Part shown: positions 4,929 through 64,000 of the stretch, one piece after another | Layout: every line of letters begins with the position of its first letter | Numbering within the stretch: position 1 is the stretch's first letter | From: Escherichia coli | GTDB taxonomy: Bacteria > Pseudomonadota > Gammaproteobacteria > Enterobacterales > Enterobacteriaceae | DNA: 64,000 nt | Assembly (NCBI RefSeq): GCF_030384885.1 | Contig: NZ_CP128613.1 | Direction: 5' to 3' (one strand) | Translations under genes and position numbers: made by a program | The notes under the pieces: model-generated | Databases searched by the model: none | Told to the model about the DNA's origin: nothing | What the model saw: only the letters and a program-made list of their open reading frames with translations

Positions 4929-6038
4929 ATGAACGAACAATCCCAGGCCAAATCACCAGAAGCCTTGCGCGCAATGGTCGCCGGGACACTGGCCAATTTT
5001 CAGCACCCAACCCTGAAGCATAACCTCACCACGCTGAAAGCGTTGCACCATGTCGCCTGGATGGACGACACGTTGCATGTGGAACTGGTTATGCCATTCG
5101 TCTGGCATAGCGCGTTCGAAGAGTTAAAAGAGCAATGTAGCGCTGAACTGCTGCGCATCACCGGGGCGAAAGCTATCGACTGGAAACTGTCGCACAATAT
5201 CGCCACCTTAAAACGCGTGAAGAATCAGCCGGGAATTAACGGCGTGAAGAACATCATTGCGGTCAGCTCCGGTAAAGGCGGCGTGGGTAAATCCTCCACG
5301 GCGGTAAATCTGGCGCTGGCACTGGCGGCGGAAGGGGCGAAAGTCGGCATTCTGGACGCCGATATCTACGGCCCATCAATACCCACCATGCTGGGCGCAG
5401 AAAATCAGCGTCCAACTTCGCCGGACGGTACCCATATGGCACCGATTATGTCTCATGGACTGGCAACCAATTCAATTGGTTATCTGGTCACTGACGACAA
5501 TGCGATGGTGTGGCGTGGTCCGATGGCGAGCAAGGCGTTAATGCAGATGTTGCAGGAAACCTTGTGGCCGGATCTCGACTATCTGGTGCTTGATATGCCG
5601 CCAGGCACCGGTGACATTCAATTGACACTGGCACAAAACATTCCAGTAACTGGCGCGGTAGTGGTCACCACCCCGCAGGACATTGCGTTGATCGATGCGA
5701 AAAAAGGCATTGTGATGTTCGAGAAAGTCGAGGTTCCGGTGCTCGGTATTGTCGAGAACATGAGTGTGCATATTTGCAGTAACTGTGGTCACCATGAACC
5801 GATTTTCGGTACCGGTGGTGCAGAGAAACTGGCCGAGAAATACCACACGCAGTTGCTGGGGCAGATGCCGTTACACATTTCCTTACGTGAAGATCTCGAT
5901 AAAGGCACGCCAACAGTTATCAGCCGTCCGGAGAGCGAATTTACCGCTATCTACCGCCAGCTGGCTGACCGCGTTGCAGCCCAGCTTTATTGGCAGGGAG
6001 AAGTCATTCCTGGCGAGATTTCCTTCCGCGCGGTCTGA
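4929..6038 (+). CDS. apbC: Fe-S cluster carrier ATPase Mrp/ApbC
   Basis: Track ORF 4899..6038; P-loop GKGGVGKSS and CSNCG motif; start moved to MNEQSQAKSPEALRA. Divergent from metG as in K-12. Confidence 0.9.
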   Translation: MNEQSQAKSPEALRAMVAGTLANFQHPTLKHNLTTLKALHHVAWMDDTLHVELVMPFVWHSAFEELKEQCSAELLRITGAKAIDWKLSHNIATLKRVKNQPGINGVKNIIAVSSGKGGVGKSSTAVNLALALAAEGAKVGILDADIYGPSIPTMLGAENQRPTSPDGTHMAPIMSHGLATNSIGYLVTDDNAMVWRGPMASKALMQMLQETLWPDLDYLVLDMPPGTGDIQLTLAQNIPVTGAVVVTTPQDIALIDAKKGIVMFEKVEVPVLGIVENMSVHICSNCGHHEPIFGTGGAEKLAEKYHTQLLGQMPLHISLREDLDKGTPTVISRPESEFTAIYRQLADRVAAQLYWQGEVIPGEISFRAV

Positions 6039-24452: not shown

Positions 24453-24737
24453 ATGAAACGCAAGATTATTGTCGCTTGCGGAGGCGCGGTTGCGACCTCT
24501 ACGATGGCGGCGGAAGAAATTAAAGAGTTGTGCCATAGCCATAATATCCCCGTTGAAGTAATCCAGTGTCGGGTTAATGAAATAGAAACCTATATGGATG
24601 GTGTACATCTTATTTGTACTACCGCCAGAGTTGACCGCAGTTTTGGCGATATTCCGTTAGTTCACGGCATGCCTTTTGTTTCTGGTGTCGGTATCGAAGC
24701 ATTACAAAATAAAATTCTGACTATCTTACAGGGGTGA
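24453..24737 (+). CDS. gatB: galactitol PTS enzyme IIB
   Basis: Track ORF 24447..24737; start at [16 protein letters not shown] (94 aa), with the Cys of the CGG motif. Confidence 0.9.
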
Positions 24738-57424: not shown

Positions 57425-59278
57425 ATGAGACGATTTCTGACGACGCTGATGATACTCCTGGTCGTGCTGGTGGCCGGGTTATCTGCGTTAGTGTTGCTGG
57501 TGAATCCGAATGATTTCCGCGACTATATGGTCAAGCAAGTTGCTGCACGTAGCGGTTATCAATTGCAGCTCGACGGGCCACTGCGTTGGCACGTCTGGCC
57601 GCAACTTAGTATCCTCTCCGGGCGAATGTCTCTCACTGCCCAGGGCGCGAGCCAGCCACTGGTTCGCGCAGACAACATGCGTCTGGACGTGGCGCTTTTA
57701 CCACTGCTGAGTCATCAACTGAGCGTTAAGCAGGTGATGCTAAAAGGGGCAGTGATCCAACTGACGCCGCAGACGGAAGCGGTACGCAGCGAAGATGCCC
57801 CGGTTGCACCGCGCGACAATACCTTGCCGGATCTGTCAGACGATCGCGGATGGTCGTTTGATATATCCAGTCTTAAGGTGGCGGACAGCGTGCTGGTGTT
57901 CCAGCATGAAGATGACGAGCAGGTGACAATCCGTAATATCCGCCTGCAAATGGAACAAGATCCCCAACATCGTGGTTCATTTGAGTTCTCCGGGCGGGTT
58001 AATCGCGATCAGCGCGATCTCACGATATCCCTTAACGGTACGGTAGATGCTTCTGATTATCCGCATGATTTAACGGCGGCTATTGAACAAATTAACTGGC
58101 AGTTGCAGGGTGCCGATTTACCAAAACAAGGTATTCAGGGGCAGGGGAGTTTCCAGGCCCAGTGGCAGGAGTCACATAAACGCCTTTCATTTAACCAAAT
58201 TAGTTTGACCGCCAATGACAGTACGCTGAGCGGGCAAGCACAGGTCACGCTGACAGAGAAACCGGAATGGCAGCTGAGACTGCAATTCCCGCAACTGAAT
58301 CTTGACAACCTCATCCCGCTTAAAGAAACAGCGAACGGTGAAAACGGTGCCGCGCAGCAGGGGCAGAGCCAATCAACATTGCCGCGCCCGGTCATTTCTT
58401 CGCGTATTGATGAACCCGCGTATCAGGGGCTGAAAGGCTTTGCGGCAGATATTTTGTTGCAGGCCAGTAACGTGCGCTGGCGCGGAATGAATTTTACAGA
58501 TGTTGCCACGCAAATGACCAACAAGTCGGGTTTGCTGGAAATTACTCAACTGCAGGGCAAGCTTAACGGTGGACAGGTTTCGCTGCCGGGCACGCTGGAC
58601 GCGACATCAATAAATCCGCGGATAATCTTCCAGCCACGGTTGGAAAACGTTGAGATTGGCACCATTCTGAAGGCGTTTAACTATCCGATTTCGTTGACCG
58701 GAAAGATGTCACTTGCGGGTGATTTCTCCGGTGCTGACATAGATGCCGACGCATTCCGCCACAACTGGCAAGGACAGGCGCATGTCGAAATGACGGACAC
58801 ACGTATGGAAGGGATGAACTTCCAGCAGATGATTCAGCAAGCGGTAGAGCGTAATGGTGGTGATGTGAAGGCCGCTGAAAACTTCGATAACGTGACGCGT
58901 CTTGACCGCTTTACCACCGATTTGACGTTGAAGGATGGCGTCGTGACGTTAAACGATATGCAAGGTCAATCGCCTGTGCTGGCGCTGACAGGGGAAGGCA
59001 TGTTGAATTTGGCAGATCAAACCTGCGACACCCAGTTTGATATTCGGGTCGTGGGTGGCTGGAACGGGGAAAGCAAACTGATTGATTTCCTCAAAGAAAC
59101 GCCAGTACCGCTGCGGGTTTATGGCAACTGGCAGCAACTTAATTACAGCCTGCAAGTGGACCAGCTGCTACGCAAACATCTCCAGGACGAAGCGAAACGT
59201 CGCCTGAATGACTGGGCAGAGCGGAATAAAGATTCCCGCAATGGCAAAGATGTGAAGAAGTTGCTGGAGAAGATGTAA
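57425..59278 (+). CDS. asmA: outer-membrane assembly protein AsmA
   Basis: 617 aa with N-terminal TM anchor. Confidence 0.9.
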   Translation: MRRFLTTLMILLVVLVAGLSALVLLVNPNDFRDYMVKQVAARSGYQLQLDGPLRWHVWPQLSILSGRMSLTAQGASQPLVRADNMRLDVALLPLLSHQLSVKQVMLKGAVIQLTPQTEAVRSEDAPVAPRDNTLPDLSDDRGWSFDISSLKVADSVLVFQHEDDEQVTIRNIRLQMEQDPQHRGSFEFSGRVNRDQRDLTISLNGTVDASDYPHDLTAAIEQINWQLQGADLPKQGIQGQGSFQAQWQESHKRLSFNQISLTANDSTLSGQAQVTLTEKPEWQLRLQFPQLNLDNLIPLKETANGENGAAQQGQSQSTLPRPVISSRIDEPAYQGLKGFAADILLQASNVRWRGMNFTDVATQMTNKSGLLEITQLQGKLNGGQVSLPGTLDATSINPRIIFQPRLENVEIGTILKAFNYPISLTGKMSLAGDFSGADIDADAFRHNWQGQAHVEMTDTRMEGMNFQQMIQQAVERNGGDVKAAENFDNVTRLDRFTTDLTLKDGVVTLNDMQGQSPVLALTGEGMLNLADQTCDTQFDIRVVGGWNGESKLIDFLKETPVPLRVYGNWQQLNYSLQVDQLLRKHLQDEAKRRLNDWAERNKDSRNGKDVKKLLEKM

Positions 59279-59736: not shown

Positions 59737-61320
59737 TCACACCTCGTACTCCATCTCGCCATCCTTACGCAGCGGAATAATCTGCACCTTCTGCACGCGA
59801 TGGCTTTCCACCTGCAACGTTTTAAGCAAATAATCCCCCACCTGAACTTCTTCGCCAGGTTTTGGAATACGCTGCAAATATTCCATCAACAGCCCGGCAA
59901 TGGTGTGATATTCACGTTTTTCATCCAGCGGCAGCGGCACATATTGCACCAGATCTTCCAGCGGCATATGACCATTCGCTGTCCATGAACCGTCGGCATT
60001 TTTCTGAATATCATGACGGGCATCGATCTCTTCCACTTCGTTTGGCAAGTTACCTGCAATGGTTTCAGTGACGTCACTTAATGTCACAATCCCTTCCACC
60101 GAGCCAAACTCATCCACCACAAAAGCAAAGTGTGTGCGGGCATTACGGAACTGCTCCAGGGCAGGTAACAACGGTAAAGTTTCCGGGAACACCAGCGGCT
60201 GGCGAATCAACACCCGCAGGTTGAGCGGTTCGCCGCGCAGTGACTGTTGTAACAGGTCGATAACGTGAACAACACCGAGCAAATCTTCTGCATCATCGCC
60301 GTCGGTAACGACCAGACGCGTGTGCTGATTTCGCTCCAGCAGCTGGCGGATCTCCTCTTCCGGCGCGTTGAGATCGATATGCTCAATATCGTGGCGCGAC
60401 GTCATAATGCTGCTGACAGTACGCTGGTTAAGATTAAGTACCCGCTCAATCATCCGCCGTTCCTGCGGATTAAAGATCTGCTGGTTACCATGATCCACCA
60501 GCATGGACGCGGTTTCGGCATCCAGTTCCGCATCTTCTTTTTGCCCGCTTAACAAGCGCATTACCGCTTCGGTAGTCCGCTGGCGCAGCGTCTGGTTAGC
60601 GGAAAGAAAACGTCGCCGGTTAAAGATAGCCAGTTGATTGAGCGCCTCGATCATCACCGAGAAACCAATGGCAGCGTACAGGTAGCCTTTCGGAATGACG
60701 AAGCCGAAACCTTCCGCCACCAGGCTAAAGCCAATCATCAACAGGAAGCTTAGGCAGAGAATAACGATGGTCGGGTGGCTATTAACGAACTGGGTTAACG
60801 GCTTGCTTGCCATCAGCATCAGGCTGATCGCGATAACCACGGCGGCCATCATGACCAGTAAATGGTCGACCATCCCGACGGCGGTAATCACCGAGTCAAG
60901 TGAGAAGATGGCGTCCAGCACCACAATTTGCGTCACCACGCCCCAGAACTTCGCACCTTTGCGTTGTGTGGGGTTATTGCTGTCTTTCCCCTCCAGCCGT
61001 TCGTTCAACTCCATCGTGGCTTTGAACAGCAGGAAGAAACCACCAAACAGCATGATTAAGTCGCGGGCACTAAAGGTAAACGAGCGGAAGCTGAACAGCG
61101 GTTGAGTCAGGGTGACCAGCCAGGAGATTGACGCCAGCAGTAACAGGCGCATTAACATCGCCAGCAGCAGCCCGGTAACCCGTGCGCGGTCGCGCTGCTT
61201 CGGCGGTAGTTTTTCGGCGAGGATGGCAATAAAGACCAGGTTATCAATGCCGAGGACCAGTTCGATCACAATCAGCGTGATTAACCCGGCCCAGATAGAC
61301 GGATCGGCAATCCATTCCAT
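59737..61320 (-). CDS. yegH: TerC-family membrane protein with CBS and CorC/HlyC domains
   Basis: Track ORF 59737..61386; start moved to [20 protein letters not shown] (527 aa). Confidence 0.88.
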
Positions 61321-61788
61321 AGTAAGTACAAAACCTATTCGTTGTATGACAAATGTCACAATTCGATCATGGATAAATCGGGGCAAAAATGCAATGTTGC
61401 AGCACTATTTATCTCATATAATTTGAGGGTTATAACCTCACATTATCCCTGAATTAAAAGTGGCAATAATAAAACATTATTTAAGAAATATCGCATATGG
61501 AGACACTATATTAATTATTGTCAACCTAAAGAAAGTCCTAAAAAACATATTGATTGACACTTAATATAATTCTTAAAAATAGCCAATTGCCGAATTGTTA
61601 CCTTGCCTGCTATTCCGTTAGCTGTAACACTTCCTCCTGCATTATTGGAAGCCAATATTCAATTACCATAATGCCACCTTATATCTGGAAAATTAATTCA
61701 CGGAATAACGCTTTTTCATAATCGACTGCATGATGAAAGAGTTAGAAAATCTAAACTAAATCAGTGTATTGGTAGCTAAAAAGCCAGG

Positions 61789-61796
61789 GGCGGTAG
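61789..61796 (+). promoter_or_regulatory. ops element (GGCGGTAG) of the JUMPstart sequence in the wza leader; RfaH-dependent antitermination site
   Basis: GGCGGTAGCGTG present ~190 nt upstream of the wza ATG in a long untranslated leader. Confidence 0.75.
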
Positions 61797-61978
61797 CGTG
61801 TCTGGATGCCTGAAAGACCAGTCTGAATTATTCTGTCAATAGCCTGCGGATGAAATCAATTTTTTTAGGACTGATGCCAGTTAAATTTTTGTTCAATTAA
61901 CTGCAAGGTAAATGTGCATGGCGACATTGCTATTAATAGTGCACAGGATAATTACTCTGCCAAAGTGATAAATAAACA

Positions 61979-63118
61979 ATGATGAAATCCAAAATGAAAT
62001 TGATGCCATTATTGGTGTCAGTAACCTTGATAAGCGGTTGCACAGTACTTCCGGGCAGCAATATGTCGACGATGGGTAAAGACGTCATCAAACAGCAGGA
62101 TGCTGATTTCGATCTCGACAAAATGGTGAATGTTTATCCGCTGACCCCGCGCCTGATTGATCAATTACGCCCACGCCCGAACGTCGCGCGCCCCAATATG
62201 ACGCTGGAAAGCGAGATTGCCAATTATCAATATCGTGTCGGGCCGGGCGACGTTCTTAATGTCACCGTCTGGGATCACCCGGAACTCACCACGCCAGCTG
62301 GTCAGTACCGCAGCTCCAGCGACACCGGCAACTGGGTACAGCCTGACGGCACCATGTTCTACCCGTATATCGGCAAGGTTCACGTAGTGGGGAAAACGCT
62401 CGCTGAAATCCGCAGTGATATTACCGGGCGCTTAGCGACGTACATCGCTGACCCGCAGGTGGACGTTAATATCGCCGCCTTCCGCTCGCAAAAAGCGTAT
62501 ATCTCAGGTCAGGTGAATAAATCCGGTCAACAGGCGATCACCAACGTACCATTGACCATTCTCGACGCCATTAACGCCGCAGGTGGCCTGACCGATACCG
62601 CTGACTGGCGCAACGTGGTGCTAACACACAATGGTCGTGAAGAACGCATTTCTTTGCAGGCGCTGATGCAAAACGGCGACCTCAATCAGAACCGACTGCT
62701 TTATCCTGGCGATATTCTCTACGTGCCGCGTAATGATGATCTGAAAGTATTTGTGATGGGTGAAGTGAAAAAACAGAGCACCCTGAAAATGGACTTTAGC
62801 GGTATGACCCTGACTGAAGCCCTGGGCAATGCTGAAGGCATCGACATGACCACCTCCAACGCCAGCGGCATCTTTGTCATTCGTCCGCTGAAAGGCGAGG
62901 GTGGGCGTAACGGCAAGATCGCCAATATCTACCAACTGGATATGTCCGATGCCACGTCGCTGGTGATGGCGACAGAATTCCGCCTGCAGCCTTATGACGT
63001 GGTGTATGTCACCACCGCCCCGGTTTCCCGCTGGAACCGTCTGATCAATCAGTTGCTGCCAACTATTAGCGGTGTCCGTTACATGACGGATACAGCCAGC
63101 GACATTCATAACTGGTAA
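61979..63118 (+). CDS. wza: outer-membrane polysaccharide export lipoprotein Wza (colanic acid)
   Basis: 379 aa; lipobox signal (LISGC). Confidence 0.93.
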
Positions 63119-63123
63119 TCGTC

Positions 63124-63567
63124 ATGTTTAACAACATCTTAGTTGTCTGTGTCGGCAATATTTGCCGTTCCCCGACGGCGGAACGCTTACTGCAACGTTA
63201 TCACCCGGAGCTGAAAGTGGAGTCCGCTGGACTCGGCGCGCTGGTTGGTAAGGGCGCTGATCCTACCGCTATCAGCGTCGCCGCAGAACATCAACTGTCT
63301 CTGGAAGGTCACTGTGCCCGTCAAATCAGCCGCAGCCTGTGTCGCAACTACGACCTGATTTTGACCATGGAAAAGCGCCATATCGAACGCTTATGCGAGA
63401 TGGCACCTGAGATGCGCGGCAAAGTGATGCTGTTTGGTCACTGGGATAACGAATGTGAAATCCCCGATCCGTATCGCAAAAGCCGGGAAACGTTTGCAGC
63501 GGTGTACACATTACTTGAACGGTCTGCCCGCCAGTGGGCGCAGGCATTGAACGCAGAGCAGGTATAA
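63124..63567 (+). CDS. wzb: low-molecular-weight protein-tyrosine phosphatase Wzb
   Basis: 147 aa; CVGNICRSP active-site motif. Confidence 0.93.
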   Translation: MFNNILVVCVGNICRSPTAERLLQRYHPELKVESAGLGALVGKGADPTAISVAAEHQLSLEGHCARQISRSLCRNYDLILTMEKRHIERLCEMAPEMRGKVMLFGHWDNECEIPDPYRKSRETFAAVYTLLERSARQWAQALNAEQV

Positions 63568-63569
63568 CA

Positions 63570-64000
63570 ATGACAGAAAAAGTAAAACAACATGCCGCTC
63601 CGGTAACGGGCAGTGATGAAATCGATATTGGTCGCCTGGTCGGCACCGTCATTGAAGCGCGCTGGTGGGTAATTGGCATCACCGCCGTATTCGCCCTCTG
63701 TGCCGTGATTTACACCTTCTTCGCTACGCCGATATACAGCGCCGACGCACTGGTACAAATTGAGCAAAGCAGCGGCAATTCGTTAGTGCAGGATATCGGC
63801 TCTGCGTTAGCCAACAAGCCGCCAGCATCGGACGCTGAGATCCAGTTGATTCGCTCGCGTCTGGTGCTCGGTAAAACGGTGGACGATCTTGACCTCGATA
63901 TTGCGGTGAGCAAAAACACGTTCCCGATTTTCGGTGCGGGCTGGGATCGCCTGATGGGACGTCAGAACGAGACAGTAAAAGTGACCACCTTTAACCGTCC
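63570..64000 (+). CDS. wzc: tyrosine autokinase / polysaccharide co-polymerase Wzc, N-terminal part; continues beyond the window
   Basis: ATG at 63570 followed by MTEKVKQHAAPVTGSDEIDIGRLVGTVIEARWWVIGIT; open to the window end. Confidence 0.85.
   Translation, partial: MTEKVKQHAAPVTGSDEIDIGRLVGTVIEARWWVIGITAVFALCAVIYTFFATPIYSADALVQIEQSSGNSLVQDIGSALANKPPASDAEIQLIRSRLVLGKTVDDLDLDIAVSKNTFPIFGAGWDRLMGRQNETVKVTTFNR

Follow-up and report, generated by a model that had tools for sequence, protein, structure and literature searches.

The 658-bp intergenic region between yegH and wza (positions 61321-61978) of the stretch of E. coli DNA analysed here (64,000 nucleotides, referred to as the window) is very probably, at about nine chances in ten, the Rcs- and RfaH-controlled cps promoter and leader, orthologous to that of E. 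coli K-12. It is known as the already described control region of a well-studied operon, and it is intact in the strain of the window. The dependence of cps on Rcs and RfaH has been published (PMC2478693, PMC3673037, PMC9976346), and the Rcs control named in the original prediction is textbook for this operon (PMC2478693, PMC3673037).

Locus and extent of the intergenic region

The genes around the region were assigned from their open reading frames and sequence, and for yegH the RefSeq annotations of K-12 and strain 2013C-4282 were transferred to the window. The gene asmA (57425-59278, plus strand) is followed by yegH (59737-61320, minus strand), which starts with an ATG at 61318-61320 and is transcribed away from wza. 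On the other side of the AT-rich spacer lie wza (61979-63118, plus strand), a 379-aa open reading frame annotated as Wza in K-12 and close relatives and the first gene of the colanic acid operon, then wzb (63124-63567, plus strand) and the 5' part of wzc, which begins at 63570 on the plus strand and runs off the window end at 64000. The order and spacing of wza, wzb and wzc are those of K-12, where the yegH-wza spacer (K-12 coordinates 2137244-2137901) is likewise 658 bp long. The alignment with the K-12 cps promoter that the original prediction had proposed as a check gave 95% identity at this equal length. This identity, together with the position between yegH and wza-wzb-wzc, marks the region as the start of the colanic acid (cps/wca) operon; the original prediction had placed the operon start here, and the divergent yegH, the orthologous proteins, the open reading frames and the RefSeq annotation all agree with it. 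The non-coding region had however been put at about 590 bp from 61387, and this edge is wrong, since it follows from a TTG-extended open reading frame running to 61386, an over-extension past the annotated ATG of yegH in K-12 and 2013C-4282; the true spacer comprises the whole 658 bp.

The spacer is 99.8% identical to that of strain 2013C-4282 and about 95% identical to those of K-12 and O157:H7. It was found in 4831 of 5426 complete E. coli genomes, only 11 of the 5426 being at least 99% identical to the spacer of the window, which points to a minor E. coli lineage, or to a recombinant segment, as the source of the window. The GC content of the spacer is 27-38.5%, against approximately 50-57% in the flanks. 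Such a low value fits binding by H-NS, and in strain CFT073 the spacer is bound and silenced by H-NS/StpA (PMC9765446).

For the comparison between species one genome per species was scanned, which yielded 80 loci. The window was then aligned with 76 other Enterobacteriaceae species that have yegH and wza in divergent orientation across a spacer of 475-935 bp, giving 77 sequences. Conservation of the aligned spacers is sharply block-wise.

One conserved block (0.76), at 61340-61400, adjoins the yegH start and holds the palindrome TGACAAATGTCA (61347-61358). The best yegH-directed promoter-like site in that region consists of GTGACA at 61359-54 and TAGGTT at 61337-32, and the block is possibly a promoter or operator of yegH.

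The candidate RcsAB box and its neighbours

A sequence loosely resembling an RcsAB box had been proposed near 61480. The sequence TAAGAAATATCGCA is indeed present at 61482-61495 on the plus strand (box a), while the motif match taken by itself is no better than chance. When compared with the RcsAB consensus TaAGaatatTCcta, in the form in which PMC4325325 and PMC3950696 quote it from Wehland and Bernhard 2000, box a agrees at 9 of 14 positions, including T1, A3, G4, T10, C11 and A14, with 5 mismatches. It also fits the RcsB box, TN(G/A)GAN4TC(T/C)NA (PMC7913699), except at position 12, where it has G and C or T is expected. Apart from box a, no site on either strand of the spacer combines all six positions at which the RcsAB consensus is invariant. 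In the window as a whole, 14 instances of the corresponding pattern TNAGNNNNNTCNNA stand against an expectation of 22 (which comes to around 0.2 in 658 bp), and 4 instances of the RcsB-type core against an expectation of 11; moreover, box a lies outside the 3-mismatch neighbourhood of TaAGaatatTCcta, for which the window has four matches at no more than 3 mismatches where 3.7 are expected.

Box a stands out from chance matches through its placement and its conservation between species, and not through the motif match. The core T.RGA....TC is found at a fixed offset, 37-39 nt upstream of the conserved block around box b described below, in 53 of the 77 species, and some 10 nt further upstream (-48/-49) in 5 more, so that 58 of the 77 Enterobacteriaceae species have it. 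Conservation in box a is 0.79 compared with 0.46-0.47 in its flanks, and its profile per position follows the RcsAB consensus. The box is identical in K-12 and O157, and the variants seen in other genera (TAGGAAATATCGCA, TCGGATATTTCGCA and TGAGGATATTCCTA) stay within the consensus or move towards it. Sequences that drift inside a motif in this manner behave as a binding site and not as neutral DNA. Box a may on balance be regarded as a functional RcsAB box, or as the published one. Full-text literature searches for the box sequences returned nothing relevant.

Two further RcsAB-like boxes lie between box a and wza, and all three share one orientation. Box b (TAAAGAAAGTCCTA, 61527-61540, plus strand) is situated within the conserved block 61518-61543 and has an RcsAB-like right half, TCCTA; box c (TAATATAATTCTTA, 61562-61575, plus strand) is situated within the conserved block 61560-61579 and contains TATAAT at 61565-61570. 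By our own count box b matches TaAGaatatTCcta at 9 of 14 positions, its K-12 version at 10, and box c at 10 of 14, and both boxes fail at G4, position 4 being A in box b and T in box c. In box b the positions T1, A8, T10, C11 and A14 are invariant in 77 of 77 species and A3 is kept in 88%; in box c T1 is kept in 97% of the species and T10, C11 and A14 in 100%. Across the two boxes A3 is thus present in 88-97% of species, and both are variable at the lower-case positions of the consensus. A related word, TTTARGA, occurs nine times in the window, four of them in the spacer.

These two boxes give rise to an explanation that competes with an operative box a, namely that Rcs acts through box b, box c or both, next to the promoter, and that box a has an auxiliary role, serves the divergent yegH, or is conserved for some other reason. 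The blocks of boxes b and c are more conserved (0.90 and 0.92 against 0.79 for box a), the two boxes are invariant or nearly so at T1, T10, C11 and A14, box a does not exceed chance as a motif match, and in the 77-species comparison the core of box a is absent at the aligned position in Franconibacter, Superficieibacter and some Kosakonia. Nevertheless only box a has a conserved G4 along with all other capital positions of the consensus, and its variants elsewhere keep to the consensus or approach it. Moreover, a distant RcsAB site is normal, the boxes of the rcsA promoter being placed about 170 bp upstream of the start (PMC11879457). We therefore consider this explanation rather doubtful, while the preferred reading of box a as an RcsAB box allows that it may not be the sole or main operator, as it is one of three tandem boxes of which the two near the promoter are the more conserved. 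Box a is best seen as the distal member of an RcsAB-like array.

The array may once have been longer. In Escherichia a remnant of an Rcs-type box, CACTATTTATCTCA, is found far upstream at 61403-61416 on the plus strand, with only the right half present and the left half lost. The aligned place in many genera (Enterobacter, Lelliottia, Trabulsiella and others) holds a palindromic RcsB-type box, TGAGATTT(A/C)TCT(C/T)A, approximately 95 bp upstream of box a, and in three of the loci (L029, L046 and L056) a palindromic box lies approximately 132 nt upstream of the block of box b.

It is a speculative suggestion, and one that we think unlikely, that the wza control region holds unrecognised conserved operators beyond the textbook single RcsAB box and JUMPstart. 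One possible form would be three (ancestrally four) RcsAB-like boxes in the same orientation, 35-45 bp apart. A second possible form would be deeply conserved blocks in the leader downstream of ops, the clearest being TTTTTAGGACTGATGCCAGTTAAAT at 61862-90. Such boxes and blocks could be extra Rcs sites, sites of another regulator, or elements that control the translation of wza.

The promoter and the predicted transcription start

The predicted core promoter of wza lies at 61603-61631 on the plus strand, with a -35 element TTGCCT (61603-08), a 17-bp spacer, TG at 61623-24 and a -10 element AACACT (61626-31). With a simple sigma-70 matrix, which is a rough guide only, no sequence on the wza strand of the window scored higher than this site. 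In 71 of the 77 species the site aligned with it again ranked first, and TTGCCT-N17-TGCAACAAT is present in most genera. Conservation is 0.89 over 61602-31 and the extended -10 is nearly invariant. Transcription would start near 61638, which we regard as the probable start on these grounds; the leader would then be about 340 nt long and include ops some 150-160 nt into the transcript. Relative to this predicted start boxes c, b and a are centred at about -70, -105 and -150. A scan for consensus promoters and terminators gave one weak promoter hit (61645-72), fewer than in shuffled sequences, and no terminators, and found neither this candidate promoter nor the one considered next.

The main promoter could otherwise use the TATAAT at 61565-70 inside box c, which would put the start near 61577 and lengthen the leader to about 400 nt. 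The centre of box b would then fall near -41 to -43, making it a class II RcsB site, and that of box a near -89. This hexamer is a perfect -10 in Escherichia, it has no good -35, as would be expected of an activator-dependent promoter, and box b would adjoin the -35, the classical location given for RcsB-only boxes (PMC5651002). In most genera, however, the hexamer is TATTAA or TAATAT, and it is outside the top 12 promoter-like sites of the rough matrix, whereas the 61603-31 site ranks first in so many of the species. A main promoter at TATAAT therefore seems improbable to us. Both candidates are predictions, and both are placed upstream of ops, so that neither predicted start conflicts with the original prediction.

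An antisense open reading frame of 44 aa (61521-61655, minus strand) extends over the wza promoter and is called a 'hypothetical protein' by PGAP in many E. coli (WP_162829205.1, in O157:H7 strain 2159). It was rejected as a gene, the open reading frame at that place being anything from 5 to 87 aa long across the 77 species, and it looks like a spurious gene call over conserved promoter DNA.

The JUMPstart/ops element and RfaH

The ops motif had been reported at 61789-61796, and GGCGGTAG is found exactly there on the plus strand, where it extends to the full 12-nt ops GGCGGTAGCGTG (61789-61800), which agrees with the 12-nt ops consensus GGCGGTAGnnTG. It forms the end of a JUMPstart element of 39 nt (61762-61800, plus strand, that is the non-template strand) which matches Rfam RF01707 at 57.3 bits (gathering score 35; E = 2.3e-12) over model positions 1-38, the whole model. 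The JUMPstart lies 179-217 nt upstream of the wza ATG and ops 190 nt upstream; that it is part of the transcribed leader rests on the predicted upstream promoter.

The 12-mer occurs once in the 64-kb window, with 0.09 copies expected, whereas the bare 8-mer GGCGGTAG occurs 8 times with 1.26 expected. The other seven copies (at 5951, 24619, 26878, 30347, 42018, 42535 and 61202) all lack the last four bases of ops. Six of these seven are inside long open reading frames, three of which read in frame as GCG GTA codons (...G GCG GTA G...), and the copy at 24619 overlaps no open reading frame of at least 150 codons in our own scan. The 8-mer alone is for this reason undiagnostic, and it is the 12-mer with its JUMPstart context that is diagnostic. 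The excess of 8-mers was rejected as a set of ops sites, as the full 12-mer is absent from them and they are mostly coding sequence.

In 73 of the 79 related loci with usable upstream sequence GGCGGTAG is situated 186-199 nt upstream of the wza ATG, and the JUMPstart sequence is nearly invariant across related loci (conservation 0.89). In CFT073 the same 12-mer is found 190 nt before wza and carries an RfaH ChIP-seq signal in an hns stpA mutant (Hustmyer et al. 2022, PMC9765446). In the wild type of that strain H-NS is said to block initiation at the wza promoter (PMC9765446). The supplement of that study gives the wza start site as NA, and the RfaH peak, whose boundary lies 351 nt before wza, does not have the resolution needed to locate the start (PMC9765446). 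In addition, the genes downstream of wzc are stated to need RfaH (PMC3673037). The full-length JUMPstart match and the ChIP signal at the orthologous CFT073 site bear out the RfaH control that the original prediction had attached to the motif. That the element is a relic of sequence with no role in the operon is extremely improbable: the bare 8-mer is common in the window and a Pseudescherichia-like clade has lost the element and retains the operon, but the Rfam match is far over threshold, the window has no second copy of the 12-mer, nearly all related loci carry the motif at a fixed position, and RfaH is detected at the orthologous site.

In fold energy the RNA hairpin of JUMPstart does not stand out (z = -0.99). 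In the established view it is the non-template DNA strand of ops that acts in the paused complex; an undistinctive RNA fold fits this, without lending it independent support.

The clade mentioned above comprises three loci (L037, L038 and L041, from MAG UBA7338, Escherichia sp. ESNIH1 and Pseudescherichia vulneris, respectively) in which the spacer has only 475-476 bp and no JUMPstart/ops. They retain the upstream Rcs-like boxes and wza and appear to have lost the RfaH loading site naturally.

The leader and the translation of wza

The part of the leader between the promoter and the JUMPstart (61640-61760, plus strand) is the least conserved (0.55), and its length changes between genera. Downstream of ops two blocks stand out on the plus strand, TTATTCTGTCAATAG at 61827-61845 (conservation 0.86) and TTTTTAGGACTGATGCCAGTTAAAT at 61862-61890 (conservation 0.89), the latter having the word TTTAGGA in common with the upstream boxes. 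Conservation rises to 0.94 in the region before the wza ATG (61940-61978, plus strand). A search for covarying RNA structure from ops to the ATG (RNAalifold, 44 species) yielded the JUMPstart hairpin, two short helices and nothing else, compensatory changes being absent, and JUMPstart was the only Rfam match in the leader.

No Shine-Dalgarno sequence was found for wza, the sequence CCAAAGTGATAAATAAACA directly upstream of the ATG having no GGAG-like run. RfaH-mediated recruitment of ribosomes has been proposed for RfaH operons, and the lack of a Shine-Dalgarno sequence would fit such assistance. By analogy with those operons, recruitment by RfaH may help the translation of wza.

Proposed mechanism and significance

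Phosphorylated RcsB together with RcsA would bind one or more of the three RcsAB-like boxes a (61482-95), b (61527-40) and c (61562-75), and this binding would activate the extended -10 sigma-70 promoter at 61603-31, or lift its silencing, with a start near 61638. RNA polymerase would then transcribe the leader of about 340 nt and pause at ops approximately 150-160 nt into it, where RfaH would load on the exposed non-template strand, replacing NusG. Once loaded, RfaH would make elongation through the operon of about 20 genes (wza-wzb-wzc-wca...) resistant to termination and to H-NS. As regards the loading step, RfaH occupies the orthologous ops of CFT073 when the promoter is active (PMC9765446).

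As the Rcs boxes, the promoter, JUMPstart/ops and wza are all intact, the operon should have its usual Rcs- and RfaH-dependent inducibility in the strain of the window. This region is the switch for the colanic acid slime, which bears on mucoidy, tolerance to desiccation and acid, phage resistance and biofilm architecture in E. coli. The current understanding of the operon is left unchanged by the analysis; the footprint over 77 species is a modest by-product that shows which bases are constrained. It could guide the engineering of the promoter or a re-examination of the number of Rcs sites used.

Comparison with known systems

The closest relative is the K-12 cps (wza) promoter itself (Stout 1996, J Bacteriol 178:4273, as cited in PMC2478693 and PMC9976346). 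Box a, box c, the -35 and -10 hexamers and the JUMPstart are identical in the two, and box b differs at one free position. On the K-12 sequence NC_000913.3, boxes a, b and c correspond to 2137727-2137740, 2137682-2137695 and 2137647-2137660, the predicted -10 to 2137591-2137596, the predicted start to about 2137584 and ops to 2137422-2137433. The differences amount to about 30 substitutions and two 1-bp indels in the spacer, concentrated at 61685-61755 just upstream of the JUMPstart.

Among systems with an RcsAB box, the wza region resembles the rcsA promoter in that its box a is far upstream, and the RcsB-type half of box a faces the promoter. Boxes b and c depart from the RcsAB consensus, as they have the same right half but no G4. 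The RcsAB-activated EPS operons behind the amsG promoter of Erwinia amylovora, where the site has been footprinted, and the cpsA promoter of Pantoea stewartii follow the same logic, with a distant RcsAB site ahead of the first gene and a long leader; they begin with a glycosyltransferase gene and not with wza. When a Wza homology search was made for Erwinia, the best 120 matches were all from close relatives within the Enterobacteriaceae.

With respect to the JUMPstart/ops elements of rfb/wzx, waaQ (rfaQ), kps and hly, the wza leader has the same 12-nt GGCGGTAGCGTG as wzx and rfaQ of CFT073 and likewise carries ops on the non-template strand of the leader, before a long H-NS-bound operon for a surface polysaccharide. 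The distance to the first gene differs, as ops lies 190 nt before wza but 40-71 nt before wzx and kpsM and 634 nt before hlyC. Unlike in those systems, the promoter of wza stays off in standard culture and depends on an initiation signal (Rcs), which explains why RfaH occupancy was seen only in the hns stpA mutant (PMC9765446).
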